Below are positions 8,708-51,800 of a stretch of DNA of 64,000 nucleotides, in pieces. Numbering within the stretch: position 1 is the first letter of the stretch; each line of letters starts with the position of its first letter. A model generated the notes under the pieces. It was not told the origin of the DNA and ran no database searches. It saw nothing but the letters and a program-made list of their open reading frames with translations. Both the position numbers and the translations under genes were made by a program. Source of the DNA: an uncultured Oscillospiraceae bacterium (GTDB lineage: Bacteria; Bacillota; Clostridia; Saccharofermentanales; DTU023); the NCBI GenBank assembly GCA_964398655.1, contig CAYNNG010000001.1, forward strand, positions 27,182 to 91,181, written 5' to 3'.

Positions 8708-10015
8708 TCAGGCTCGGGGCTCCAAGATCTCTTGTCCCTGCATATAGGGGCGGAGAACTTCCGGTACAATTACGCTGCCATCGGCCTGCTGATTCTGCTC
8801 CAAAATAGCAGGGAAAATACGGGAGGTTGCAAGGCCAGAGCCGTTTAAGCTGTGTAGGAATTCCGGCTTGGTTCCATCTTGGCGGCGGAAGCGCAGGTTA
8901 GTACGCCGGGCCTGGTAATCGCCAGAGGTGGAGACGGAAGATACCTCTTTATAACCGCCCATGGAAGGGATATAGACTTCAATATCCCAGGTTTCGCGCA
9001 TGGAGGCAGATACATCGCCCGCCGCCAGTTTGACCAGCTGATAGTGGAGTCCCAGTTTTTCTACCAGGCTGCAGGCCTTATTGATGAGCTCTTTTAAAGC
9101 CGCCGCGTCATCTTCGGGCTTCACAAATTGGAACATTTCCACCTTATTAAACTGGTGGCCCCGGATCATGCCGCGCTCTTCCGCCCGGTAGGAACCCGCT
9201 TCCCGCCGGTAGCAGGGAGTGTAGGCGAAGCACTTAATGGGCAGGTCTTCTTCCTCCAGGATCTCGTCCCGGTAGAGGTTAACCAGGGCAGTTTCGGCTG
9301 TGGGCAGGAGGAAGCGGCCAAAGCCTTGCCCGTATTCATCCTCTTCCTTGCCTTGCAGGCGGAGTTGGAACACGTCCTCAGAGAATTTAGGGAACTGGCC
9401 GGCGCCCAGGCCGCAGGCATAATTGAGAATATGGGGAGGCAGGATCATTTCATAGCCATCTTTGATGTGCTCGTTAATGAAGAAGTTAAGCAGGGCCCAC
9501 TCCAAGCGGGCGCCCTGTCCCCTATACATCCAGAAACCGGAGCCAGACAGCCGGGTTCCCCGTTCGTAATCAATCAAACCCAAGCTCTCGGCCAAGTCCA
9601 CATGGTGCTTGGGCTCAAAGTCGAAAGTGGGCTTTTCGCCAAAGGTCTTTTTGACCTGGTTATTTTCCTTCCCCCCAGCTACGACATCGTCGTGGGGCAT
9701 GTTGGGCAGGCCAATCATAAACTGGTACTGGGCTTCGTCCAGGGCTTGCAGCTCGACTTCTTTATTCTTTATATCTTCGGAAACTTGTTTGAGTTCTTCC
9801 AAGAGTCCCGAGGCATCCTGGCCAGCTTTTTTCAGCTTGGGGATTTCGGCAGACTTCTTATTACGCAAGGCCTTGAGTTCTTCCGTCTCGTGGATCAGGG
9901 CGCGGCGCTCCTTATCCTGGTCTAAAAAGTGGCTGAGATCTAAGTCAAAACCTCTTTTGGCTAAGGCTTTAACTACGGTTTCCGGATCATTGCGCAGTAA
10001 ATTAATATCTAACAT
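8708..10015 (-). CDS. serS: Serine--tRNA ligase
   Basis: MLDINLLRNDPE N-terminal coiled-coil arm, class II core motifs (FRREAGS-like CYRREAGSYRAEERGMIRGHQFNKVE) and C-terminal GSGLATSR. Confidence 0.95.
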   Translation of the reverse strand: MLDINLLRNDPETVVKALAKRGFDLDLSHFLDQDKERRALIHETEELKALRNKKSAEIPKLKKAGQDASGLLEELKQVSEDIKNKEVELQALDEAQYQFMIGLPNMPHDDVVAGGKENNQVKKTFGEKPTFDFEPKHHVDLAESLGLIDYERGTRLSGSGFWMYRGQGARLEWALLNFFINEHIKDGYEMILPPHILNYACGLGAGQFPKFSEDVFQLRLQGKEEDEYGQGFGRFLLPTAETALVNLYRDEILEEEDLPIKCFAYTPCYRREAGSYRAEERGMIRGHQFNKVEMFQFVKPEDDAAALKELINKACSLVEKLGLHYQLVKLAAGDVSASMRETWDIEVYIPSMGGYKEVSSVSTSGDYQARRTNLRFRRQDGTKPEFLHSLNGSGLATSRIFPAILEQNQQADGSVIVPEVLRPYMQGQEILEPRA

Positions 10016-10339
10016 GTTTCCTCTTCCTTTCTGCTACGTCAGTGTGAGGTTCGTTTATTTATAATTATCTTATTAAGCTTACCGCTTAAGCGGGATTTTG
10101 CAACTATAAATGGTATGATTTCTACTATAAATGGTTGAGTCTCCACCTTTTATAGCGGCTTTATAGCTGTTCACGATTATAGCCCAAGCGGAAGTCTTGC
10201 GGCTACACTTCCCACCCGCTGAGCTCAAGACTTATCTCTATCTCACCATCAGGGCTTCAATAATCAGGGGTAAGTGGAACTCTGTATGCTCTACAGTTGA
10301 GTTATTAGCGGAGTTTCTAGTTGTGTTTCTAGTTGAACA

Positions 10340-12352
10340 TTAGTTGAGTTTTAGGTGAGTGTTTGTCAGAACAGACACACAGGAGGTCAAGGCTTCAAGC
10401 GCAGGGGCCAAATCTTCCTCCTTGAAATCGAAAGCAGGGTGGTGATGGGCAGTGACCGTGTCTGTACCCAGCATGAGGTGAATGGCCTGGCCTCCTTGGC
10501 GGAGGACTTGGTTCATCCAAGTGACCACATCCTCCGAGGCGGCAAAGTCTGGGCCCACCAGGGTCTTGAAGCCCAGCTTCGTTATTGTCTGCTGGACCGT
10601 GCGTCCCTGGTCCAAATAGGCCGGAAGATAGGCAGGATCCAGCGCTTCCGCGTAGCCCTCCCGCTCGAGCTGCCAGCTAAGGTCTCGCGCTTGGCAGTGG
10701 CCCTGGACCATGGCCTGCATTTTGCCCTGCAGGTCTTGTATAGTCGCCGTATCTGCCGCGCGGATTTCAAACTCCAATTGGGCATGCTCAGGAATCACAT
10801 TAGGCAGCCGGCCCGCCTCCAGTCTTCCTACATTCAGGAAAGCCTTACTGTGGCCATATTGGGTGAGAGTATGGAGATTTAAGGCTAGACCCGCTGCCGC
10901 CAGCAGGGCATTTTTCCCGGTCTCCGGAGCGGAAGCAGCATGTGCGGCTTGGCCCTGGATATCCAGTAAAAACTTCTGACTGGCTAGGAAACCCTGGGTT
11001 GCCAGCCCCACCGTACCCGAGGGGATGCCCAGGCCCAGATGGCAACCAAACATATAGTCCACTCCATCTGCCAGGCCTCGCTTAACCATGCTATAGGCTC
11101 CGCGGCAAGACTCTTCGGCCGGCTGAAAAATCAAGCGCACCCTGCCCTTGAGCTCAACCGTTTGAGCAATAACTTTAGCCAGGGCAAGTCCCAAAGCGAT
11201 ATGGCCATCGTGGGCGCAGGCATGGCAGGCTTGACCATTATTTTGCGAAAAGCCTTCACGTTCCGGCCTGTGGTCATCCGCTTGACTCTCCGCAATAGCC
11301 AGGCCATCAATGTCAAAGCGGAAAAGCAGGTAGGGCCCGGCTTTACCCGAATCCCAGTCTGCTATCACGCCGGTGTACGAGTCCAGGATTTCCTCAAAAA
11401 CCGCATCTGGGAGCGGCTTCTGGGGTGCATGGTTATGGGCCACGGGTATATCTAGGGACTGGTTACCTGGCCTTTGCTTGTCGGGCATTTGGCTATGGGC
11501 CGCAGTGCTGTTTGTCGCCTGACTGCTGTCGGTCTCCTGGCGATGCGCTGCAACGTTGTATGACGTCTGACTAGCTGCCGGCCCTAACTTGCTGTTAGCC
11601 TGCGCTTGAACTTGCGCAAAAAGCTTGGCCAAGTCTTCCCGCTTAACCCCACACTTAGCCTCATAATTCTTCTTAAACTCGGCACTCGGCAGGGCCAGGC
11701 GGTCTTCCGTATGTAAGGCCTTGCCCAACTGAACAGACCAGCCCAGGCCTAAGAGGCGGGAGGCAATCTCCAAGCTGGTACGGAACTCCAGCCAACCAGG
11801 CTCTGCGATACTATGGAAGAAACGCCGGTCAGAAATCAATTGTTGCGCTAGTTTGGCATTTTCTCGTGCATAGATCATACATTGTTCTGTTACAGGTGTA
11901 CCCAGCTTAATTTCCCGTTCATCGCCCTCAAAGCGGAAACCATAACGCGTATAAAAGCGTGCGGCGCGCTCATTCCCCTTTAAGACCCAAACAACTACTT
12001 CTTGAAAGTCTTTTAACCTCTCAAGAGCTGCATTCATCAATTCATATCCAACGGTGCTACCATGGTAAGCAGCCAAGACATAAATCGCATAAATTTCACC
12101 TCTGTGAGGAAGCTCCGAGTCCCGGCAAGCTCCATATACTACAAACCCTACAACCTCATCGCCGTCCTTGGCAATCAGAGTATGGTCTAGGTCGGTATGG
12201 GCTATACTACGGCACTTGTCTAACGTCATGCGTTCAAGAAAATTAGCGTCAATTAAGCCAGGATAGGTCTCATGCCAGGACTTCCAATGCACATAGCCCT
12301 TTCCTCGTATTTCATCTATCGTTTCAGGCTGCTTAATCGTAAATATGGCCAT
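10340..12352 (-). CDS. GNAT N-acetyltransferase fused to an M20D-type amidohydrolase/peptidase
   Basis: aa 1-165 is a GNAT fold (VVGFVVYG..IYAIYVLAAYHGSTVGYELMNAAL..RAARFYTRYGFRFEG). The rest is M20 (RRFFHSIAEPGWLEFRTS..ACHACAHDGHIALGLA..FQPAEESCRGAYSMV..FGCHLG), interrupted by a ~110-aa Q/S/A/T-rich insert. Confidence 0.8.
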   Translation of the reverse strand: MAIFTIKQPETIDEIRGKGYVHWKSWHETYPGLIDANFLERMTLDKCRSIAHTDLDHTLIAKDGDEVVGFVVYGACRDSELPHRGEIYAIYVLAAYHGSTVGYELMNAALERLKDFQEVVVWVLKGNERAARFYTRYGFRFEGDEREIKLGTPVTEQCMIYARENAKLAQQLISDRRFFHSIAEPGWLEFRTSLEIASRLLGLGWSVQLGKALHTEDRLALPSAEFKKNYEAKCGVKREDLAKLFAQVQAQANSKLGPAASQTSYNVAAHRQETDSSQATNSTAAHSQMPDKQRPGNQSLDIPVAHNHAPQKPLPDAVFEEILDSYTGVIADWDSGKAGPYLLFRFDIDGLAIAESQADDHRPEREGFSQNNGQACHACAHDGHIALGLALAKVIAQTVELKGRVRLIFQPAEESCRGAYSMVKRGLADGVDYMFGCHLGLGIPSGTVGLATQGFLASQKFLLDIQGQAAHAASAPETGKNALLAAAGLALNLHTLTQYGHSKAFLNVGRLEAGRLPNVIPEHAQLEFEIRAADTATIQDLQGKMQAMVQGHCQARDLSWQLEREGYAEALDPAYLPAYLDQGRTVQQTITKLGFKTLVGPDFAASEDVVTWMNQVLRQGGQAIHLMLGTDTVTAHHHPAFDFKEEDLAPALEALTSCVSVLTNTHLKLN

Positions 12353-12466
12353 AGCTCATTTCCCCTTTATATTTTTCTTCCTGCGTAACATTTTGTGCAA
12401 GTATAACTGATTGATAAAGAGCCGACTGTATATTTTAAGGTTCTCCATTTTTCAGGGTTAGGTAGT

Positions 12467-12722
12467 CGTAGGGAACTCGGCCGAATGGTTAAAATGCCTA
12501 CGGTTAAATCAGCTACGAGGGCTTGGGAGGCATAGGGAGATCCGCCAAATGGCTAAATTGCCTACGCTTATATCAGCTACGAGAGCTTATGAGGCGTAGG
12601 GAGATTAAGCAAATCACCGAAATGCCTACTACGATCTCAGCCCCAAAGGCCTAGTAAGCGTAGGCAAATTCATTGATTCGCCGAAATGCCTACTGCTTCC
12701 GGTGGATGGTGCCTGTGGATTT
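12467..12722. repeat. Degenerate tandem repeat, 64-nt period, about 4 units, each with a CGTAGG..CCTAC(G) inverted repeat
   Basis: Units start at 12467, 12531, 12595 and 12659. Units 1 and 2 are roughly 80 percent identical by eye; units 3 and 4 are decayed. The period is not a multiple of 3. Confidence 0.8.
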
Positions 12723-12830
12723 CAGAATATGGGGATTCCACAGGCATTTTCAGGGCAGGAGGGCACTTTGAACGCCTGTGAAATTTAAGAATTGACGATT
12801 CTCCAGGCAATTTAAGAATAAGAAAGAAAA

Positions 12831-12876
12831 TCGGAAAGAAAAAAGGAGCTGGTCCGCAGTGGGAACAGCTCCTTTT
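12831..12876 (-). terminator. Rho-independent terminator of the rplKAJL operon (bidirectional shape)
   Basis: AAAAGGAGCTG (12841-12851) pairs perfectly with CAGCTCCTTTT (12866-12876). On the minus strand the hairpin is followed by TTTTTTCTTTCC. Confidence 0.8.
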
Positions 12877-13046
12877 ATAGGTAAATTTGTGGGCAGTAAT
12901 GCTGCTAGCCAGGTTTTAAGTAGTTGTAGGTGGTGATGCCTATGGTGGCAATGACACCTACTTATCCACGCACTCATGCGCATAAGCGCTCACTACCATC
13001 AGCCTAGGCTGCCAGCAGGACTGCCGGAGTTGAAGTAAAGTTAAAA

Positions 13047-13433
13047 CTACTTGAGTTCGACTTCGGCGCCAGCTTCTTTGAGCTTGTTGGCGATTTCTTC
13101 AGCTTCTTCTTTCTCCACGCCTTCTTTGACCGGCTTGGGTGCTTCGTCAACCAGAGCCTTAGCATCCTTGAGGCCGAGGCCGGTGATTTCACGGACAACC
13201 TTGATAACACCGATCTTGCTGGCGCCAGCGGACTTCAGGATAACGTCAAAGCTGGATTGTTCTTCTTCTGCGGCTGCACCACCGGCTGCGCCAGCGGCAC
13301 CAGGAGCAACGGTCATCATAGCGGCGGCGGAAACGCCAAATTCTTCCTCTAAGGCTTTGACCAGGTCATTAAGTTCGATAACGGTTAGGCCCTTAACTTC
13401 TTCGATGAGGGCATTAATTTTTTCACTTGCCAT
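13047..13433 (-). CDS. rplL: 50S ribosomal protein L7/L12
   Basis: [60 protein letters not shown]. Confidence 0.97.
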
Positions 13434-14137: not shown

Positions 14138-14290
14138 TCTCTTACCTCCTTATGTATTTAAATACCCCTCTCGCTCACCAGAAAGCGGAGGGGTACACGT
14201 AGTCCACATCTCCACCTCGGCCGGAATGTTTAAGGCATGGCCTCCGGCTGTCTTCGGCGATCAGGTGTATTTATGAAGTTAGGCGGGGAC
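14138..14290 (-). promoter_or_regulatory. Structured rplJ 5' leader (candidate L10-leader autoregulatory RNA)
   Basis: 153-nt rplA-rplJ gap. Contains the hairpin ACCCCTC..GAGGGGT (14164-14194) with an inner CGCT/AGCG stem just upstream of the rplJ RBS. Position matches the Firmicutes L10 leader. Not checked against a covariance model. Confidence 0.35.
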
Positions 14291-27407: not shown

Positions 27408-28790
27408 ATGAACGAGATTGTGTTGGATACTGAGGAAAAGAGCATTTTTAAACGGCAATTTTGGGAGCTGGCCTACCCGAGTATTATCGCTTTTACCCTT
27501 CAGGGCTTTTACGACATCATCGACATGATGTGGGTAGGTAAAATTTCCAAGGAAGCTATCGCGGGGGTTACCCTCTTCTCCGTAATTTATGCCCTATTCG
27601 GGGTGCTGAATGAGGTAGCCGGCGCTTCTTCCGTCTCCATGATTTCCCAGTCCTACGGCCGCGGCACGGAAGAAAGAACCCAGACCATTTCTGAGCAGAC
27701 CATTTCTTTTAAAATCGTCCTGGCCATCATTACGGGAACCCTGATTTACCTGACCCTGGACCCTATTCTCAACTGGTTTTCTTCCGACCCCCTGGTCATC
27801 CAGGCCGCTAAAGATTACGGAATTATCCGCATCTTTGCCCTGCCTGTAGCCTTTTCCTCCTATTCGGTCAACACCATCTTTCGCTGCACCGGCGACTCTA
27901 AAACGCCCATGAAGATCATGCTGATTGCCACGGTCATCAACATGATCCTAGACCCCCTGCTCATGTTTGAAACCCTTACCATCGGCAGCCTAAAACTGCA
28001 AGGTTATGGCTTGGGTGTTTACGGAGCGGGCCTAGCCACGGTAATTTCCATCTGTATCTCCTTCGGCCTAGGCTTCTTCATCCTTGTAACCGGCCGTCGG
28101 GATGTGACCATCAGCATGCGGGGGCTCTTGCGTCTGGATAAGGAAATTGACCTTCAGCTCCTGTCCATCGGTCTGCCTGCCGGTGGCCAGCTCCTCATCC
28201 GTCAAGCCTTCAACACCCTGCTCATGGGCTTTATCACCTCTTACGGCACCCTAGCCGTGACCATCTTTGGCCTAGGCAACAAGCTGGTACAATTCTCCTT
28301 CTCCTCCATGGCCGGCTTCTCCTTTGCCGGATCCACCATGGTGGGTCATGCCTTGGGCCGCGAGCACGTGGAAGAGGCCTCCTACTTAGCTAGAGTTGCA
28401 ACTACCATCATTGTAAGCATCATTGGCACCATCGCCGGCCTCGCCATGATCTTCCCCGCCACTTTCCTGGGCTTCTTTAACAAAGATCCCGAAGTCTTAA
28501 CCGCAGGCAGCCCCATGCTCCGCTGGCTGGCCGGCTCCATGATAATCGCCGCCTTCGGCTCCGGCATGCGGATCGTCTTCTCCGGATCCGGCTTCAACCG
28601 CCCCGTCCTCATCTCCACCATCATCTCCCGCTGGCTGGTCCAACTCCCCCTCATGTATGTCCTAGTCAAGCTCCTGCAAGTCCCCCTCAACTCCCTCTGG
28701 ATATCCTTCGTAATCGCCGAGCTGGCCGACTTATCCGTGGTAATCTACTACTTCCGCCGCGGCGACTGGAAGCTAAAAAGGGTGGGCTAG
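27408..28790 (+). CDS. MATE family efflux transporter
   Basis: 460 aa, about 12 TM helices, with the typical N-terminus (FWELAYPSIIAFTLQGFYDIIDMMWVGKISKEAIAG). Confidence 0.88.
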   Translation: MNEIVLDTEEKSIFKRQFWELAYPSIIAFTLQGFYDIIDMMWVGKISKEAIAGVTLFSVIYALFGVLNEVAGASSVSMISQSYGRGTEERTQTISEQTISFKIVLAIITGTLIYLTLDPILNWFSSDPLVIQAAKDYGIIRIFALPVAFSSYSVNTIFRCTGDSKTPMKIMLIATVINMILDPLLMFETLTIGSLKLQGYGLGVYGAGLATVISICISFGLGFFILVTGRRDVTISMRGLLRLDKEIDLQLLSIGLPAGGQLLIRQAFNTLLMGFITSYGTLAVTIFGLGNKLVQFSFSSMAGFSFAGSTMVGHALGREHVEEASYLARVATTIIVSIIGTIAGLAMIFPATFLGFFNKDPEVLTAGSPMLRWLAGSMIIAAFGSGMRIVFSGSGFNRPVLISTIISRWLVQLPLMYVLVKLLQVPLNSLWISFVIAELADLSVVIYYFRRGDWKLKRVG

Positions 28791-29048
28791 GTTAGCTAAT
28801 GATTAGGCTCGCTTAGGGACTAGGCTAGCAAATGGATTGGGTGCGCTTAGCTCAAGAACTACCTCACTGCTAGCCCAGTTATTTATAGTCAATCTAGCTC
28901 AAACTGGGTTTTGCACACCTTTTTTGAGGCTGCGAAGGCCCCTGGGCGCCAGATTTTGGTTGGCAGATTTGCGCAAACTGGGTTTTGCACACCCTTTTTT
29001 GAGAGCCCGGTTGTGTAAGCCTTCTCAGATTGTGGAAACACCCATAGG

Positions 29049-36393: not shown

Positions 36394-39177
36394 TTACAAG
36401 TTTTCTAAACTGGGAGCTAGGATTTCCTTAGGCTTAAAGCCCAGGTAATCACCGGCCACCAGGCTATAAGGGACACCATCTATCAGCTGCTGGTTAAGGC
36501 AGTAGGGAGAACCAGCGTGGTGGATATGGCCGAAGACACAAGCTACTGCGCCCGCTTCACGTATGAGGCTTGTGACCTGGCTAGGGGCGAGGTTCTTGGC
36601 AAAGGGTGGGAAGTGGGTCATGACAATGAGCTGACGGTCCCCAGGAATCTGACCTGCGGCCTGCAAAGACAACTGCAGCCTGGCCTCTTCTCTCTGTAAA
36701 ATCTTGTCGTCCGCGGCCGTAAAGCGCTGGTCGTCTGGCCAGAGCCAGAGCCGGCTGCCCGCGATCATATAACGGTCTCCCAGGGGCAGGGCCGTATTTT
36801 GCAGGAAATGCAGGCTGGACCAGCCTTGGTCCTGGGCATAGCCGCGAATTTTATTCAGGCTCTGCCACCAATAGTCATGGTTGCCCCGCAGGAGGATTTT
36901 CTGCCCCGGCAAGTCCTGTAGAAGCTGGAGGTCAGCAACAGCCTCAGGCAGGTGCATGGCCCAGGAAATATCTCCCGGGATGAGCACATAGTCCTGGTCA
37001 GCTACTAGTTCCCGCCACTGGTCCTGCAAGCGCCGGGTGTGGTCTTTCCAGACTGGCCCAAACTTATCCATGGGCTTGTCCACACTCTGGGAGAGGTGGA
37101 GGTCAGCAATCGCAAAAATACGGGCTTCCTGGCTTACGGAAAGTTCGGCCGGCAGGGGCTCCGGGCTGGGCAAATCTTCCGTTAGGTCTGAAGTTTCTTT
37201 CCCCTTATGTTCCAGATCCACCTGGTCCTCTGCCTGGCTGGTGTCAGCTGCAGGTTCGGCTGAATCCAGGGCTTCTTCCGGGTGAAAGTGCTGGTAGACC
37301 GCCAGGGCCACGGAACTGGGTAGCTTGGCCTCGCTCTCCAGTTCGCCCAAACTGGCTTGCGACACGCCCTTAAGCGTTTTAAAGGCCTGGAGCAAGGCCT
37401 TGCGGCGGGCAGGCCCTACACCAGGGATCTCCTCCAGGCTCCAGCGCAGGTTCCGCTTTCGGGCCAGCTTCTTCTGCTGGCGCCCGGCAAAGCGGTGGGC
37501 CTCGTTTTGAATCGCCGTAATCAGGCGGAGCAAGCTGAGGTCCTTATTGCGGTCCTCCGTGCTCATCCGGGCTTCTTGCTGGGGGTCGTGGCGGAGCAGG
37601 ATTTCAGTCTGGTCCTGGCGGATCAGGCCTCGTGACCGGTGCCGGTCATCCTTAACCATGCCGGCCAGGGCAATTTCGGGCGCCGTGGCCTGAATTAAGG
37701 GGTCGATGGCTGCCACATGGCCCGCGCCGCCGTCCAAGAGGATGAGCTGGGGCCTTTGGCCAAAATCTTCGTCCGTCAAGCGGGCCAAGCGGCGGGAAAT
37801 GGCCTCCTGCATTGAGGCATAGTCGTCCTGGCCCTCCACACGCTTGATATTAAAGTGCCGGTAGGCCGAGCGTTTGGGCTTGCCGTCCATAAAGACAATC
37901 ATGGAAGCTGCCTTGTCGTCCTGGCTCAGGTTGGCGATATCGTAGGCTTCAATGCGGTGGGGATATTCTTGCAAGCCCAGGCGATCAGCCAGGTCTTCCA
38001 GGGTGCGTTCCAAGTTGCCCTGTCCCCCGCCCACCAAGACATGGCGGACTAAACTTTCTTCCGCGTTCCGCTCTGCCATCTCCAGCCAGCGCAACTTAAG
38101 TCCGCGCTGGGGCCGGTGGACCCGAATCTTGCGTCCGGCCTGGCTGCGCAGCCAGGCTTCCACCTGCTCTAAACCGTCCGGCAGGTCAGAAAGCAGAATT
38201 TCCTGGGGCAGCTGGTGACCCTGGGAGTAGTATTGCAAAATAAAGGCCTGGTAAAGTTCTGCCCGGCTCTCCCCCCGGTCGGGGAAGAAATAGGAACCGG
38301 TAGAGATAATCCGGCCTTCCCTCACCTTCAAGATGCGTACGGCCTTTTCTGAATCATTCTCGGCCAAAGCCAGGACATCCGCGTCGCTCTCCAGCTCAGG
38401 CAGGGCGATGGTCTGCCGCTCATTCAGTTTTTCCAGAGCTTGGAGTCGGTCGCGCAGACGGGCGGCCTGCTCAAAGTCCAGGCGGGCAGCGGCCTTCCGC
38501 ATATCCTGTTCCAACTTGCGGCTGAAGGGTACGGATTTGCCCTCCAAAAATTGGACCAACTCGTCAATCACGGCCCGATATTCCTCTTGGGGCACCGAGC
38601 CCAGGCAGGGACCAATACACTTGCCAATATAATAATTCAGGCAGGGCCGTTCCTTGCCAATATCTCGGGGCAAGACCCGGCGGCAGCGTTTGAGGGGGAA
38701 AATTTCATAAATAGCTTGCAAAGCCCGGTAGAGGTCTCCACTTTGGTAGGGTCCAAAGTAGCGCACGCCCTCTTTGTAGTCGTCCAAGATATGGAAAGAT
38801 TTAACTACCCGGGGATAAGCTTCATTCAGGGTAACCCGAATATAGGGGTACTCTTTATCATCTCGCAGCAGGATATTGTAGCGAGGTTCATAGTGCTTGA
38901 TGAGGTTATTTTCCAGGATCAGGGCTTCCAGCTCATTGGCGCAAAGCACATAATCAAAATCCCGGATGTGAGAAATCATGGCCAGGACTTTGGCATTGCC
39001 CTGGGGATTCTCGGTAAAATAAGAACGCAGACGGCGGGGGAGGTTTATGGCCTTCCCCACATAAATAACCTGCCCAGCTTCATCCTTCATCAGGTAGACG
39101 CCGGGTTCTTCAGGTATGAGGTCTAGCCGAACATCAAGATTCGGAAGGTCTGGCTGGGGGTTCACAAGGGCGGTCAA
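36394..39177 (-). CDS. uvrC: Excinuclease ABC subunit C fused to a C-terminal calcineurin-like metallophosphoesterase domain
   Basis: Single 927-aa ORF. It has a GIY-YIG domain (GVYLMKDEAGQVIYVGKAINLPRRL), a UvrBC domain, an RNaseH-like endonuclease domain and HhH (IPGVGPARRKALLQAF). A ~55-aa acidic linker follows, then a 243-aa phosphoesterase domain (36394-37125): IFAIADLHLS, GDISWAM, RGNHDYWW, THFPP, GHIHH. Confidence 0.85.
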   Translation of the reverse strand: MTALVNPQPDLPNLDVRLDLIPEEPGVYLMKDEAGQVIYVGKAINLPRRLRSYFTENPQGNAKVLAMISHIRDFDYVLCANELEALILENNLIKHYEPRYNILLRDDKEYPYIRVTLNEAYPRVVKSFHILDDYKEGVRYFGPYQSGDLYRALQAIYEIFPLKRCRRVLPRDIGKERPCLNYYIGKCIGPCLGSVPQEEYRAVIDELVQFLEGKSVPFSRKLEQDMRKAAARLDFEQAARLRDRLQALEKLNERQTIALPELESDADVLALAENDSEKAVRILKVREGRIISTGSYFFPDRGESRAELYQAFILQYYSQGHQLPQEILLSDLPDGLEQVEAWLRSQAGRKIRVHRPQRGLKLRWLEMAERNAEESLVRHVLVGGGQGNLERTLEDLADRLGLQEYPHRIEAYDIANLSQDDKAASMIVFMDGKPKRSAYRHFNIKRVEGQDDYASMQEAISRRLARLTDEDFGQRPQLILLDGGAGHVAAIDPLIQATAPEIALAGMVKDDRHRSRGLIRQDQTEILLRHDPQQEARMSTEDRNKDLSLLRLITAIQNEAHRFAGRQQKKLARKRNLRWSLEEIPGVGPARRKALLQAFKTLKGVSQASLGELESEAKLPSSVALAVYQHFHPEEALDSAEPAADTSQAEDQVDLEHKGKETSDLTEDLPSPEPLPAELSVSQEARIFAIADLHLSQSVDKPMDKFGPVWKDHTRRLQDQWRELVADQDYVLIPGDISWAMHLPEAVADLQLLQDLPGQKILLRGNHDYWWQSLNKIRGYAQDQGWSSLHFLQNTALPLGDRYMIAGSRLWLWPDDQRFTAADDKILQREEARLQLSLQAAGQIPGDRQLIVMTHFPPFAKNLAPSQVTSLIREAGAVACVFGHIHHAGSPYCLNQQLIDGVPYSLVAGDYLGFKPKEILAPSLENL

Positions 39178-39546: not shown

Positions 39547-40761
39547 CTATAGTTGGACTTCCAGGATCAGCGCATCTTCGCGTGGTTTGTCGTAGTAGTT
39601 TTTACGTTCCCCACAGGGCAGAAAACCCAAGCTGGCATAAAGTTTACGGGCCGCTTCATTGGACTTGCGGACTTCCAGGGTCAGGCGGTGCACACCCCGG
39701 GACTTGGCGTCGGCCATCAGGCCAGCCAGGAGTTTTTGCCCCAGGCCCTGGTGGCGGTGGTCCGGCAGTATGGCTATATTGAGAATTTCTGCCTCGTCCA
39801 CATGGAGGTAGTAGCCCCCATAGCCCAGGATTTCTTCCGCCGGCTTGGCCTGGTCCCCGCTTCCCTCTTCTTCATCCGGCTGAGGCTGCGGTAGATAAAT
39901 GAGAAACAGCTTGGCGTCCTTGTTTTCAGGCGCTAGCTGGTGGGCCAGGGCCTTGCGGGACCAGGGGGTAGAGAAGACGGCCCGCTCGATCTGGTGGATG
40001 GTATCCAGGTCTTTCAGACCCGCAGGGCGGAGCTGAACCTGGGCCAGATGCTCTGACCGCACCCGTTCGGCCTGGGTAGGAGCACAGTAATTGGCCGCAG
40101 TTTCTTGCCAGGAGGGTTTTTCCCCACGGTCCGCGGCTTCTTGGGCCAGGAGGCCCAGGTTATAAGGTCGGAGGCAGGCCACACTGGCATCTAGGACTTC
40201 TAAGGTAAAATGCTGGCTGGCCTCAGGATCCAGATCATAGGCTGCTTGGATAGCCGAGGCCCCATCGCCCAAAAGATAGAGGGTGGGCTGGCTTTTACGG
40301 CCTAGGTAAAAGAGCTTCTTCAATTCTGCCATGAGGTCTTGCCCATAACGGTTGGCTTCGGGCAAAACCCTTTGCCCTCCGCGGTAAAGGCAAGAGAAGG
40401 TCCGGCCAGATCGGGCATCCAAGGCCGGCAGGAAGAAGGCATCCATAGCCCGATAAGGCGCCGCCATCAGGGCCAGGCTGGAAAAAGCATAGATAGGTTT
40501 GTCCGCTTGCCAGGCCCAGGTTTTGGCCGTGGCCAGGCCAATACGGATGCCGGTATAGGATCCCGGTCCGCTCGTCACCGCAAAGGCTTCAAGCTCAGAA
40601 AAATCTACCCCCGCCTCGGTCAGAAGTTCTTTTAACTGAGGCAGGAGGGTAACAGAATGCTTAAAACCTGCTACAAGGCTGCGTTCCGCCAAAAGCTGAC
40701 CGTCCTTGACCAGGGCTAGGCCCAAGCTTTTACTTGATGTGTCCAAGGCTAAAATTAGCAT
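39547..40761 (-). CDS. tsaB: tRNA t6A protein TsaB fused to a RimI-type GNAT acetyltransferase
   Basis: N-terminal half: MLILALDTSSKSLGLALV..GPGSYTGIRIG. C-terminal half: AEILNIAILPDHRHQGLGQKLL..RLTLEVRKSNEAARKLYASLGF. Confidence 0.85.
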   Translation of the reverse strand: MLILALDTSSKSLGLALVKDGQLLAERSLVAGFKHSVTLLPQLKELLTEAGVDFSELEAFAVTSGPGSYTGIRIGLATAKTWAWQADKPIYAFSSLALMAAPYRAMDAFFLPALDARSGRTFSCLYRGGQRVLPEANRYGQDLMAELKKLFYLGRKSQPTLYLLGDGASAIQAAYDLDPEASQHFTLEVLDASVACLRPYNLGLLAQEAADRGEKPSWQETAANYCAPTQAERVRSEHLAQVQLRPAGLKDLDTIHQIERAVFSTPWSRKALAHQLAPENKDAKLFLIYLPQPQPDEEEGSGDQAKPAEEILGYGGYYLHVDEAEILNIAILPDHRHQGLGQKLLAGLMADAKSRGVHRLTLEVRKSNEAARKLYASLGFLPCGERKNYYDKPREDALILEVQL

Positions 40762-49688: not shown

Positions 49689-51800
49689 CTATTCCACTAG
49701 GGTTTGGGCAATCGGCGCAACCTGAATTACATGGTTTTTCAGGGCCCAGAGGTCCAGCATATTTACGAGGCCATCCTGGTTAATATCCATAGCCAGGTCA
49801 TAAGCCGTATCCACGTTGATCTCCCCGCGGATAATGCGGTCACGCATGGCCTGGAAGTCGCTGAGGTCGATATAACCGTCGCCATTGGCATCGCCTAAAA
49901 TAACCAGGGGAAACTGGTTGACCGCCTGGCCATTTTCTCTCAATTGAAGAAGAGAGCCTGTACCGGCTCTTTCTATAGCATTCTGTCCGTCAGCTGCCAG
50001 TACTTCTATGTTATAACTAGGCGGTAAATTGCTGTACTGGCCTTTGAGATAGCTTGCAGCGTTGCTCCCCTGCAAGGGGTCTGCCCCGTAAAGATAGCCC
50101 AGGGAGGAAATCTGATAGCTGGAGGAGGAAATCTTGGGCAGGCCCTCCGCATCTACGTTGGCTGTGAGGGGGCTTTGTTCCACATAAAGCCGGTAGTTGC
50201 GGCTGACCCCGTTATTCGCGACCACCTGTAAAATAATTTCGTTGGGACCGGGCCTTAACTGGTAGACCCCCATGCCCGCCACCGTGGAATCCGGGCTCCA
50301 AGGCAGGGCATCCACTGCCAGGCCCCGGCTGGCCGCGGAGATTTCTAGCTTATACTCATAGCGTTCGGGACGAAAGTTGGGAATCACCTGGCCATTGACC
50401 CGGATAGCCTTCAGCCAGTTGTTGGGATTGCCCCCGCCGGTAGGTGAAGGTGTAAGCTCTGGCATATCCAGGAAAACTGGGATCAGGAACTCTTTACTTT
50501 CCTGTAGGGCTCCCATCTCCAGGTAGGCATTATAGACATTGATCGCCTCATACTCCGGAGCCAAAACATTGCCCATGTATTGGTGGGTAAAGGGCCGAGT
50601 ATAGCGCGAGACCAAGTTCCACTTCTGCAAGTAGAGGGTATGCTGGTCTACCTTAATGTAGTCTTTGCCGATAAAAATCGCCCCGCCCTTGATGGCCTTG
50701 GCAGGATCTGTCCAAGGGAAGAGCATTTCCGCATTCTTATAGTCTGGATATCCCGCGATGCCGTCGCGGGCCGTCACCAGGCCCATGTAGAGGGGGTCTC
50801 CCCCACCCGTGGCCCCGATATTGTAGAAGTTATAATAGCCCCGCACATCTTCGGAATAGTCTCCGGACACGGAATGTGAGCCATCTGGTCCCACCTCTTG
50901 GATAATACGGGACAGAAGATGGTAGGGTGAAACCCCAGACACTTGACCGGCTTCTTCCAGCAGGCTGGCATAGTCCGTATCAAGACTGCGGCTTTGGCCC
51001 TCTTGGTCCAGGTACGGGATAGGCGAAGCTGCCATAAAGGTATTATTAATTACAGACACCAGACCATGCCGGTAGGCCAGGTCGGGATTATAACGCTGAC
51101 TTTCAAATTGGAAAATCTGCACCTCGTCCAAAAAGTTGCGGGGATCCATCTGGAAGGCAATGAGCTCGGCTGAAGCCCCTACCCAGCCCTGTTCGTATTC
51201 CCGCCAGGAGTTGGTGTAGTAGTTAAAATCCGCATCCGCCTTAGACTTGTACTCGGGGGGAGAGTTGGCAATTACCAGGTTAACCCCTGGCCGGTACTCG
51301 CCCTTGACGGCGCGGTCAAAGGTATAGTTGGTATGCAGAGGAGAGAAAGTCCATTGGGGGTAGGCGGCGTGCAGCTCCATGAGGGGACCGATATAGGATT
51401 CCGGGAAACCTTTAGCTACCAGGTCCTGCCGAAATTCCTCGCTGCCCAGGCCCGGCATCACGGGCGGGAGCTCAAGCTCATATTGAATACGGATAAAGGC
51501 AGACGAGACATAGCCATGCATATTGTTATACATGATCTCGTACCAGGTGCTGTTGCCTCCGACATCCTCGCCTGGAACCTCACCCAAGACAGTCACTTCC
51601 ACCCCTTTTTTCAGTTCTCTGAGGGGCTCGCGGGAAGTATCTGGGTCCCGGCGCATATAACTGGAAGGGTCTGCCGTCACAAATCCTGATACAGGGTAGA
51701 CAGGCTCTGCCTCCTGGTCTTCGTGGAAAAATACCAGAACCTCCACCAAGAGGAGGAGGATTAAAATTGCTCCGAGGAGGGTCTTACCTCTATGCTTCAC
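49689..51800 (-). CDS. Peptidoglycan hydrolase: SH3b-like + GH73 N-acetylglucosaminidase + cadherin-like beta-sandwich + C-terminal dockerin
   Basis: GH73-type blocks: SPYHLLSRIIQEVG, YYNFYNIGATGG, DQHTLYLQKWNL, THQYMGN. Cadherin-like: NWLKAIRVNGQVIPNFRPERYEY. Dockerin repeats: GDANGDGYIDLSDFQAMRDRII and MDINQDGLVNMLDLWALKNHVI. N-terminal signal-anchor helix. Confidence 0.8.
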   Translation of the reverse strand: MKHRGKTLLGAILILLLLVEVLVFFHEDQEAEPVYPVSGFVTADPSSYMRRDPDTSREPLRELKKGVEVTVLGEVPGEDVGGNSTWYEIMYNNMHGYVSSAFIRIQYELELPPVMPGLGSEEFRQDLVAKGFPESYIGPLMELHAAYPQWTFSPLHTNYTFDRAVKGEYRPGVNLVIANSPPEYKSKADADFNYYTNSWREYEQGWVGASAELIAFQMDPRNFLDEVQIFQFESQRYNPDLAYRHGLVSVINNTFMAASPIPYLDQEGQSRSLDTDYASLLEEAGQVSGVSPYHLLSRIIQEVGPDGSHSVSGDYSEDVRGYYNFYNIGATGGGDPLYMGLVTARDGIAGYPDYKNAEMLFPWTDPAKAIKGGAIFIGKDYIKVDQHTLYLQKWNLVSRYTRPFTHQYMGNVLAPEYEAINVYNAYLEMGALQESKEFLIPVFLDMPELTPSPTGGGNPNNWLKAIRVNGQVIPNFRPERYEYKLEISAASRGLAVDALPWSPDSTVAGMGVYQLRPGPNEIILQVVANNGVSRNYRLYVEQSPLTANVDAEGLPKISSSSYQISSLGYLYGADPLQGSNAASYLKGQYSNLPPSYNIEVLAADGQNAIERAGTGSLLQLRENGQAVNQFPLVILGDANGDGYIDLSDFQAMRDRIIRGEINVDTAYDLAMDINQDGLVNMLDLWALKNHVIQVAPIAQTLVE

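Follow-up and report, generated by a model that had tools for sequence, protein, structure and literature searches.

Introduction

Variable number tandem repeat (VNTR) loci, such as those of the mycobacterial MIRU type, consist of tandem units of some tens of nucleotides that lie between co-directional genes and vary in number and content from strain to strain. MIRU-type minisatellites evolve by slippage or unequal exchange, and the family occupies many loci. Here we describe an array of hairpin units in a 64-kb stretch of genomic DNA (hereafter the window) from an uncultured species of the Clostridia. The array lies between the ribosomal protein gene rplL and a gene that encodes a GNAT domain fused to an M20 amidohydrolase (GNAT-M20). 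Like VNTR loci, it consists of units placed head to tail, with a period of 64 nt, and its length and content are polymorphic among close strains. Unlike MIRU-type VNTRs, it is a single locus whose hairpin units combine invariant arms with free loops, and it has no sequence similarity to any of the described VNTR families. We regard the locus as what appears to be a real but ordinary kind of bacterial minisatellite. The explanation that we favour, and to which we give an even chance of being correct, is a private VNTR-like hairpin minisatellite that resides in an insert, would form part of the sense leader of GNAT-M20 and may act in cis through its stems.

BOX elements are dispersed at many loci, with over a hundred copies per genome. 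In pneumococci they have the structure boxA-(boxB)n-boxC, in which the end modules boxA and boxC carry inverted repeats, while the tandem internal module is strain-variable and is predicted to form stem-loops when transcribed; BOX elements are found in 5' leaders and can alter the expression of neighbouring genes (PMC3049150). In our locus, whose units are likewise predicted to form stem-loops if transcribed, the number of tandem modules varies as well, with one versus three copies of a second, B-type unit and a spacer of 694 versus 819 nt. Unlike BOX, the array has neither end modules nor terminal inverted repeats, and it occupies one locus only in the 75 kb of genome searched.

The BrickBuilt element of Porphyromonas gingivalis is a minisatellite borne by a MITE (miniature inverted-repeat transposable element), whose 23-nt units follow each other without spacers and 19 copies per genome (PMC4596501). 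Its leader and tail subunits have inverted ends, and it is found near gene starts, with possible promoter activity (PMC4596501). Our array is likewise a species-specific intergenic tandem array close to a gene start. However, it has no 23-nt units, no leader or tail subunits and no multiple copies in the 75 kb searched.

The repetitive extragenic palindromes (REP) and bacterial interspersed mosaic elements (BIME) of proteobacteria are GTAG-initiated palindromes of alternating orientation that occur in hundreds of copies, are linked to a RAYT transposase and have possible effects at the mRNA level. REP/BIME clusters are also mentioned in two published papers (PMC3049150, PMC3184786). The locus described here resembles them in its short GTAG-initiated palindromes, clustered beside a terminator between genes, and in that effects on the mRNA are possible. 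Unlike REP/BIME, all of its units stand head to tail, at one locus in 75 kb, and no RAYT-like gene is present in the window.

The sopC site of the F plasmid comprises 12 near-identical 43-bp units beside plasmid partition genes, each containing a 7-bp inverted repeat with arms 2 bp apart. Such units provide an iterated platform for protein binding. Our array shares with sopC and iteron arrays the phased tandem units that each bear a short inverted repeat, but it is a core chromosomal locus with 20 bp between its arms, and there are no par or rep genes in the window. An iteron or centromere array is ruled out by this core context (rpmG-secE-nusG-rplKAJL...serS) and by the lack of plasmid or phage similarity. 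An integron attC array was rejected as well: in place of paired inverse-core and core sites (RYYYAAC ... GTTRRRY), unit 1 contains a single GTTAAAT without an inverted partner, and the window encodes no integrase. The locus fails at least one tested defining feature of each group considered, namely CRISPR, REP/BIME, BOX, attC and iteron arrays.

Results

Anatomy of the array and conservation of its arms

A preliminary description of this DNA, made from the sequence alone, had proposed four head-to-tail units with a 64-nt period, the first two about 80 percent identical and the remainder progressively decayed. Our analysis bears this out. Tandem Repeats Finder reports a period of 64 with 2.1-2.3 copies and 79-83% matches (12469-12629), and 2.7 copies on strain contigs. 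The arm pattern GTAGGSA-N18-24-TGCCTAC is unique to the array within the 64 kb, at three plus-strand sites, one of which is also read on the minus strand; 0.03 matches were expected, and 0 of 100 shuffles reached the observed count. An alignment of the four proposed units has 23 invariant columns. Pairwise identity amounts to 81% between units 1 and 2, 62% between units 2 and 3 and 59% between units 1 and 3, falling to 52%, 48% and 42% when unit 4 is compared with units 3, 1 and 2, respectively. Homology over the whole unit, as originally proposed, applies to units 1-3, whereas unit 4 is homologous over its 36-nt hairpin only, with a tail that matches the others at chance level (5-8 of 29 positions). 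Homology also reaches 13 nt to the left of unit 1. The array therefore comprises about 3.8 units and extends from 12454 to 12694 (Table 1).

Conservation is concentrated in the hairpin arms. Of the 18 arm columns in the alignment of the four units, 15 are invariant, versus 3 of 17 in the loops and 2 of 29 in the tails (15/18 versus 5/46; Fisher p=6e-8; 0/2000 permutations). Unit 4 matches unit 1 at 17 of 18 arm positions and at 14 of 46 positions elsewhere, the latter being chance level. Strain polymorphism follows the same division, affecting 1 of 64 arm sites versus 9 of 80 loop sites (p=0.043). Read on the sense (minus) strand, the A-type hairpin is GTAGGCA-N20-T(C/G)CCTAC(G), and all units and alleles have exactly 20 nt between the arms.

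Stems of 6-7 bp had been proposed. Stem length ranges from 5 to 7 bp, and units 1-3 share a conserved mismatch, G.G on the plus strand and C.C on the minus strand. A4 is the sole unit with perfectly complementary 7-bp arms (GTAGGCA/TGCCTAC). In unit 2 the window reads CATAGGGA, most other strains CGTAGGGA; in this window allele of A2, G.U replaces G-C in the outer stem. In the window allele of A3 the canonical stem is not the minimum-energy fold.

The array fills the space upstream of the GNAT-M20 gene and is not coding, as had been stated, with a period of 64 and no open reading frame that has a family match. The direct repeat said to bracket it is present, yet only 9 nt are exact (TTTTCAGGG, 12449-12457 and 12747-12755), which is about chance level, at our estimate of roughly one such 9-mer pair per 750 nt. 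Since inverted ends are lacking, TTTTCAGGG is ruled out as a target-site duplication or MITE end.

Strain haplotypes

Exact matches to RplL, RplJ and the fusion protein retrieved strain contigs from at least 12 samples, among which five haplotypes of the spacer can be told apart, with flanks that are 98.6-100% identical. Haplotype W (694 nt; the window and L006) serves as the reference. Haplotype X (694 nt; L001-L005, L061 and L063) has clustered changes at 12525, 12530 and 12532, and haplotype Y (819 nt; L068) is distinguished by three B-type units, one in W versus three in Y accompanying an additional 125 nt, in strains whose flanking genes share 99.4-100% identity. In haplotype Y2 (849 nt; L062) a gap of 100 N separates two B copies. 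Haplotype Z (693 nt; L066, joined to L071 by a 24-nt overlap, and L069) has a diverged B hairpin, spacer and A3 loop. Divergence of Z is heavy in the A4-A3 spacer and the A3 loop, with unchanged arms: its identity to the window drops from 99.4-99.75% in the genes on either side to 95.9% across the B region and 78-90% across the A array. All five haplotypes have four A-type units.

The preliminary description had also raised the possibility of an expanding and contracting locus. The number of B units, the content of the units and broken assemblies (contigs L066, L069 and L070 end inside the array, where L066 and L071 also overlap) agree with this in a weak sense only. The A count is constant at four.

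Strains that are 99.97-100% identical over 9-15 kb have all of their 3-4 differences in this spacer (12525, 12530, 12532; also 12426). Three changes fall within 8 nt (12525-12532), and site 12525 is tri-allelic among strains. This clustering suggests templated or multi-nucleotide mutation.

B-type units and neighbouring hairpins

The stem noted beyond the array, given earlier as 9 bp, is real and measures 10 bp (TGCCTGTGGA/TCCACAGGCA). The hairpin is tripled in haplotype Y, which identifies it as a second unit, of B type, belonging to the same array. One copy is present in the window, three in L068 and at least two in L062; those of L068 are 52-73 nt apart, and the middle one is decayed. All intact alleles of the B hairpin have sense folds between -16 and -18 kcal/mol (z -3.1 to -5.7). 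In haplotype Z (L066, L069) the hairpin has undergone seven changes within 45 nt. Three of these turn the loop quasi-palindrome ATTCT/GAAAT into a perfect ATCTC/GAGAT, and two more shift the stem; the antisense fold becomes -25 kcal/mol.

A duplicated AATTTAAGAAT, already noted, is present at 12782-12792 and 12809-12819. The hairpin beyond the terminator, described earlier at 12927-12962 as related to the array, exists at 12926-12961, but a profile of the array units does not detect it; its likeness to them is limited to GTAGG/CCTAC and ATGCCTA.

Insertion of the array and origin of the fusion gene

Five contigs from three to four related species, whose M20 proteins are 62-71% identical to that of the window, show full synteny from cobS to sbcC. 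In these relatives M20 occupies the same syntenic position, is 467-481 aa long and has no GNAT domain. rplL is followed by the same terminator, about 85 nt and then M20, with neither GNAT nor array, and the rplL-M20 spacer measures 163 nt (367 nt in one) versus 694 nt in the window. Homology with the relatives covers rplL plus 46 nt and the terminator, and resumes at about 11852 inside the fusion gene; their M20 aligns only to residues 168-668 of the fusion protein. These breaks define two pieces that are private to this species, of about 124 nt and about 1 kb. Downstream of 13000, the terminator is the only part of the spacer in common with the relatives. The larger piece, which follows the terminator, consists of a 488-nt non-coding stretch containing the array and the 500-nt GNAT segment. 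GC content is 44-45% in the spacer and GNAT part, 54% in the window and 56% in the M20 part. The insertion origin of the array and its absence from all relatives had gone unnoticed in the earlier reading.

The GNAT-M20 fusion is thus lineage-specific, being absent from relatives at 62-71% M20 identity. Clostridia of the gut and rumen commonly encode stand-alone GNAT homologues of 164 aa, at 58-65% identity. The composition and the break points suggest that the GNAT segment was acquired along with the non-coding array DNA and subsequently fused to the resident M20 gene. In a search for a donor of the array, the DNA upstream of the closest stand-alone GNAT genes proved unrelated and without comparable repeats.

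Other spacers are also longer in the window than in the relative L007: cobD-amylase (93 versus -4 nt), amylase-PRA-PH (251 versus 170), DUF4015-IMPACT (173 versus 67) and IMPACT-yebC (193 versus 75). The extra DNA has no sequence common between loci. L007 has a PemK toxin pair inserted after serS instead.

TGCCTA, the core of the array arm, recurs in the rplL-M20 spacers of L007, L009, L011 and L013. There are eight occurrences, about five of them independent, versus about 0.5 expected (background 0.55-0.8 per kb), and L011 carries a perfect palindrome, TAGGCATGCCTA. It is conceivable that the hexamer represents a cis element already present upstream of M20 in an ancestor.

Search for further copies

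The part of the organism's own genome that was searched consists of the window and 11.4 kb beyond its ends, about 75 kb in all. All-against-all BLAST of 33 intergenic regions found no related sequence in the window's other 32, and neither the unit nor the hairpin, searched as nhmmer profiles, had a further match in the window, the relatives' loci or the 11.4 kb beyond. An arm-pattern scan had no match in 185,579 GTDB species genomes or in viral contigs; these species representatives do not include the window's own species. Within the sequences searched, a dispersed repeat family is rejected. A plasmid or phage origin is rejected likewise, since the array has no similarity to plasmids or phages. 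Outside the array, the looser arm patterns TGCCT..AGGCA and AGGCA..TGCCT occur at chance level. As far as searched (75 kb of its own genome and 185,579 species genomes), the element is confined to one species and one locus.

Metagenomes of the JGI collection yielded three isolated single matches and no array, consistent with chance. In one contig (L056, JGI Ga0209596_1011973, 1352-1391), a lone hairpin, CGTAGGCAGATCC...CTGCCTACTGCTT, is similar to unit 4, and the similarity extends to five bases of the flank (nhmmer E=1e-3, the search space being small). The surrounding DNA is AT-rich and comes from an unrelated organism, and the resemblance is probably due to chance.

RNA folding and transcription signals

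Folding energies of the A hairpins on the sense strand lie between -8 and -15 kcal/mol (z -1.0 to -2.6). The whole array folds better than shuffled sequence, with a z of about -3.3 on both strands and arms that pair across units; whole-array folds were therefore discarded as a pointer to strand or per-unit structure. Base pairs were counted over eight distinct A hairpins and 8 outer-stem pairs. Five of the 8 pairs are invariant and one changes from G-C to G.U; pair 7 is a C.C mismatch in 6 of the 8 sequences, and the closing pair 1 is A.G in four and formed in the other four. Because the stems are invariant, the covariation count neither supports nor refutes pairing. In the sense RNA, each of the two outer-stem polymorphisms (A2 and B3) replaces C by U across from a G, as do two changes in inner stems that were defined post hoc, which gives a weak hint of sense-RNA pairing.

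With the Rfam 15 covariance models, only sub-threshold hits were obtained, on the terminator, and a known RNA family is rejected for lack of a match. By eye, a candidate promoter can be placed on the sense strand (TTGCCT at 12810-12805, 17 nt, TAAATT at 12787-12782), with 8 of 12 matches and below the scan threshold; it overlaps the decayed B-like unit of Table 1. A CsrA-type sponge RNA on the plus strand was rejected, as GGA shows no enrichment (8 in 321 nt versus about 19 per kb window-wide).

Genomic context

All genes around the locus are encoded on the minus strand, in the order rpmG, secE, nusG, rplK, rplA, rplJ, rplL, the 694-nt spacer, GNAT-M20 and serS. rplJ is preceded by an L10 leader (RF00557, 49.7 bits, 14150-14275). 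The sequence suggests a putative ribosome-binding site for GNAT-M20, GGGG at 12362-12365, 9 nt ahead of the ATG at 12352. The terminator of the ribosomal protein operon is 84% identical to those of L007, L009 and L012 and 100% conserved among strains. The remaining genes of the window are housekeeping genes only; no transposase, cas, rep or par gene is among them. The nearest named relatives are uncultured 'Clostridiales bacterium' metagenome-assembled genomes. Coordinates are collected in Table 1.

Table 1. Features of the rplL to serS region, in window coordinates.
Feature	Position	Strand	Remarks
serS	8708-10015	minus	
GNAT-M20 fusion gene	10340-12352	minus	670 aa
Resident M20 amidohydrolase part	10340-11852	minus	Syntenic with relatives; GC 56%
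GNAT-domain coding segment	11853-12352	minus	Residues 1-167; Pfam; GC 45%; joined in frame to M20
Proximal GNAT-M20 leader	12353-12453	minus	97-99% conserved among strains
A-type array	12454-12694	minus	Four hairpins; exact 64-nt period; three 28-29-nt spacers
Hairpin A1	12467-12502	minus	Closest to GNAT-M20 start; identical in all strains; sense fold -9.9 kcal/mol, z=-2.0
Hairpin A2	12531-12566	minus	Three strain alleles; folds -14.6 and -14.8 kcal/mol
Hairpin A3	12595-12630	minus	Haplotype Z: loop differs at 6/20 positions, arms unchanged
Hairpin A4	12659-12694	minus	Fold -13.9 kcal/mol, z=-2.6
B-type hairpin	12710-12746	minus	TGCCTGTGGA-N17-TCCACAGGCA; 10-bp stem; fold z=-4.6
Decayed B-like unit	12774-12808	minus	GCCTG...CAGGC, 5-bp arms; from regular-expression listing; overlaps duplicated AATTTAAGAAT
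Intrinsic terminator of rplKAJL operon	12841-12876	minus	Fold -20.4 kcal/mol, z=-6.2, then U-run
Private insert, about 124 nt	12877-13000	minus	Between rplL 3' flank and terminator; absent from relatives; GC 47%
Two-tier hairpin	12926-12961	minus	GTAGGTG/CACCTAC; fold -17.2 kcal/mol, z=-5.3
rplL	13047-13433	minus	

Further repeats and gene fusions are present in the window. The GNAT-M20 stop codon falls inside a tandem repeat with 12-nt units (AGTTGAGTTTT-like) at 10295-10360, which has 5.7 copies and 71% matches. The M20-serS spacer (10016-10339) measures 324 nt versus 87 nt in L007 and carries a duplicated ACCATTTATAGT; an Rfam search of this spacer gave no T-box match. At the 3' end of a MatE transporter gene lies a 34-nt tandem repeat (1.9 copies, 80% matches, 28787-28850). 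UvrC is fused to a calcineurin-like phosphoesterase in a 927-aa protein (36394-39177), and a TsaB/TsaD-like domain to a RimI-type GNAT in one of 404 aa (39547-40761). A 703-aa protein (49689-51800) combines SH3_3 with a type I dockerin domain, which hints at a cellulosome-bearing Clostridia lineage.

Discussion

In the explanation that we favour, a segment of low-GC DNA entered the interval from the rplL terminator to the M20 amidohydrolase gene and brought with it a GNAT gene that became joined to M20. In the non-coding part of this DNA, a hairpin-bearing unit would have been serially duplicated head to tail, which gave the four A-type units with their 64-nt period and between one and three units of B type. 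Slipped-strand or unequal recombination would then account for units gained, lost and exchanged between strains, the inverted-repeat arms being kept constant during turnover. As the array is on the sense strand directly upstream of GNAT-M20, we infer that it is transcribed within a long leader of about 0.4 kb. The stems may act there in cis, for example as RNA stem-loops that affect mRNA stability or processing.

The preliminary description had considered a protein-binding platform or a multi-hairpin leader, and had named the outcome that would point to a neutral local duplication. Either functional proposal is in line with arms that are more conserved than loops and spacers, but neither is helped by compensatory covariation or an Rfam match, both of which are lacking. 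The neutral view, in turn, agrees with the lack of other copies and the absence from relatives, whereas conserved arms and strain hypervariability argue against plain neutral decay. Plain decay fails to explain why the arms are identical amid randomised loops and spacers, why loop length is fixed and why the A units number four throughout when the B count varies.

The array might instead be a functionless by-product, that is, hairpin-prone foreign DNA duplicated by slippage, in which events at the DNA level alone keep the arms alike: template switching at quasi-palindromes, and gene conversion or unequal exchange initiated in the sole segments that are identical from unit to unit. We consider this doubtful, though a possibility of some weight. 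It would fit the absence of the array from every relative and all collections searched, and the expansion of other spacers compared with L007 (including M20-serS). The clustered multi-nucleotide polymorphisms fit as well, the changes of haplotype Z perfecting a quasi-palindrome in a manner typical of templated mutation, and the same applies to the missing covariation, Rfam match and promoter at scan threshold. However, templated correction maintains complementarity within a hairpin, not identity between units, and yet units with loops and tails of no more than chance similarity have identical arms. Palindrome correction would do the reverse of conserving a C.C mismatch, and the A count remains fixed at four in five haplotypes despite high turnover nearby. 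An operator array, which we judge unlikely, takes the arms as half-sites of a DNA-binding protein that regulates M20 or GNAT-M20, amplified from an ancestral TGCCTA and phased at 64 bp, or about six helical turns. It is the sequence itself that is conserved, not merely complementarity; the arms differ asymmetrically (GTAGGCA versus GTAGGGA) in 3 of 4 units in all strains, their 20-bp separation is fixed while the sequence in between drifts, and there is no compensatory covariation. All this would suit an operator, as would the enrichment of TGCCTA in the relatives' spacers and the palindrome TAGGCATGCCTA of L011. Yet 27 bp (about 2.6 turns) separate the centres of the half-sites, which hence lie on opposite faces of the helix, the halves abut in L011, leaving no common geometry, and the B-type arms have a different sequence. 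No regulator gene adjoins the locus, the hexamer enrichment is modest and was measured against a background that intergenic composition does not resemble, and polymorphism 30-fold above that of the flanks is not expected of operators. A broader variant, in which the arms are sites for a sequence-specific factor (regulator or recombinase-like) and the amplified ancestral TGCCTA both controls GNAT-M20 and drives its own turnover, strikes us as quite improbable.

It is more improbable still that the array is a local cluster of a dispersed mobile repeat (REP/BIME, BOX or MITE-like) with its other copies beyond the 75 kb examined. The units do start with GTAG on both strands, as REPs do, and GTAGG/CCTAC hairpins occur in two separate lineage-specific inserts that flank the conserved terminator. 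Paralogous exchange would explain the replaced spacer and loop of haplotype Z, which are 30-65% different from those of the window, and BOX elements, too, hold tandem, strain-variable boxB modules (PMC3049150). Against such a family stand the failure to find a further copy in the 64-kb window, 11 kb beyond it, the relatives or 185,579 species genomes, the lack of a transposase or RAYT-like gene in the window, and the lack of terminal modules and inverted ends, with a flanking 9-nt repeat at chance level. A degenerate orphan CRISPR array, finally, is suggested by the 64-nt period with its division into 36-nt repeats and 28-29-nt spacers, and by some spacers that differ between strains. This reading is effectively refuted, and the earlier statement that the array is not CRISPR-like stands: CRISPR repeats are near-identical over 23-47 nt, but those of the array have variable interiors and are alike at their ends only (18 of 36 positions), the first two spacers show 83% mutual identity (24/29) with the third matching them at 15 of 29 positions, no cas genes are found in the 64-kb window, and there is no phage or plasmid match.

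Between RNA stem-loops in a sense leader on the one hand and binding half-sites or functionless homogenisation on the other, we slightly prefer the former because of the orientation of the array and the wobble-compatible polymorphisms. Several observations weigh against stems that act at the RNA level. The A hairpins are weak (z -1 to -2.6) and have 20-nt loops, the fold of the whole array favours long-range pairing between units, and the antisense strand folds about equally well. Three of the four units retain the C.C mismatch. No compensatory double substitution was found among the eight A hairpins, whose stems hardly vary, and the argument from sense-strand wobble pairs involves 2-4 transitions. 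A promoter scan of the minus strand gave none at threshold, and the copy search covered 75 kb of the genome.

As one locus in one species, the array is of limited general importance. For this uncultured member of the Clostridia it provides a hypervariable marker of strains and marks a place where short-read assemblies break. Should the arms be sites for a factor, the locus would offer a view, at strain level, of how a cis-regulatory platform with many sites is born. With functional arms, it would represent a natural experiment on a new fused gene that gains a long repetitive control region, and would show how stems are held constant while the rest of the hairpin repeats turns over.

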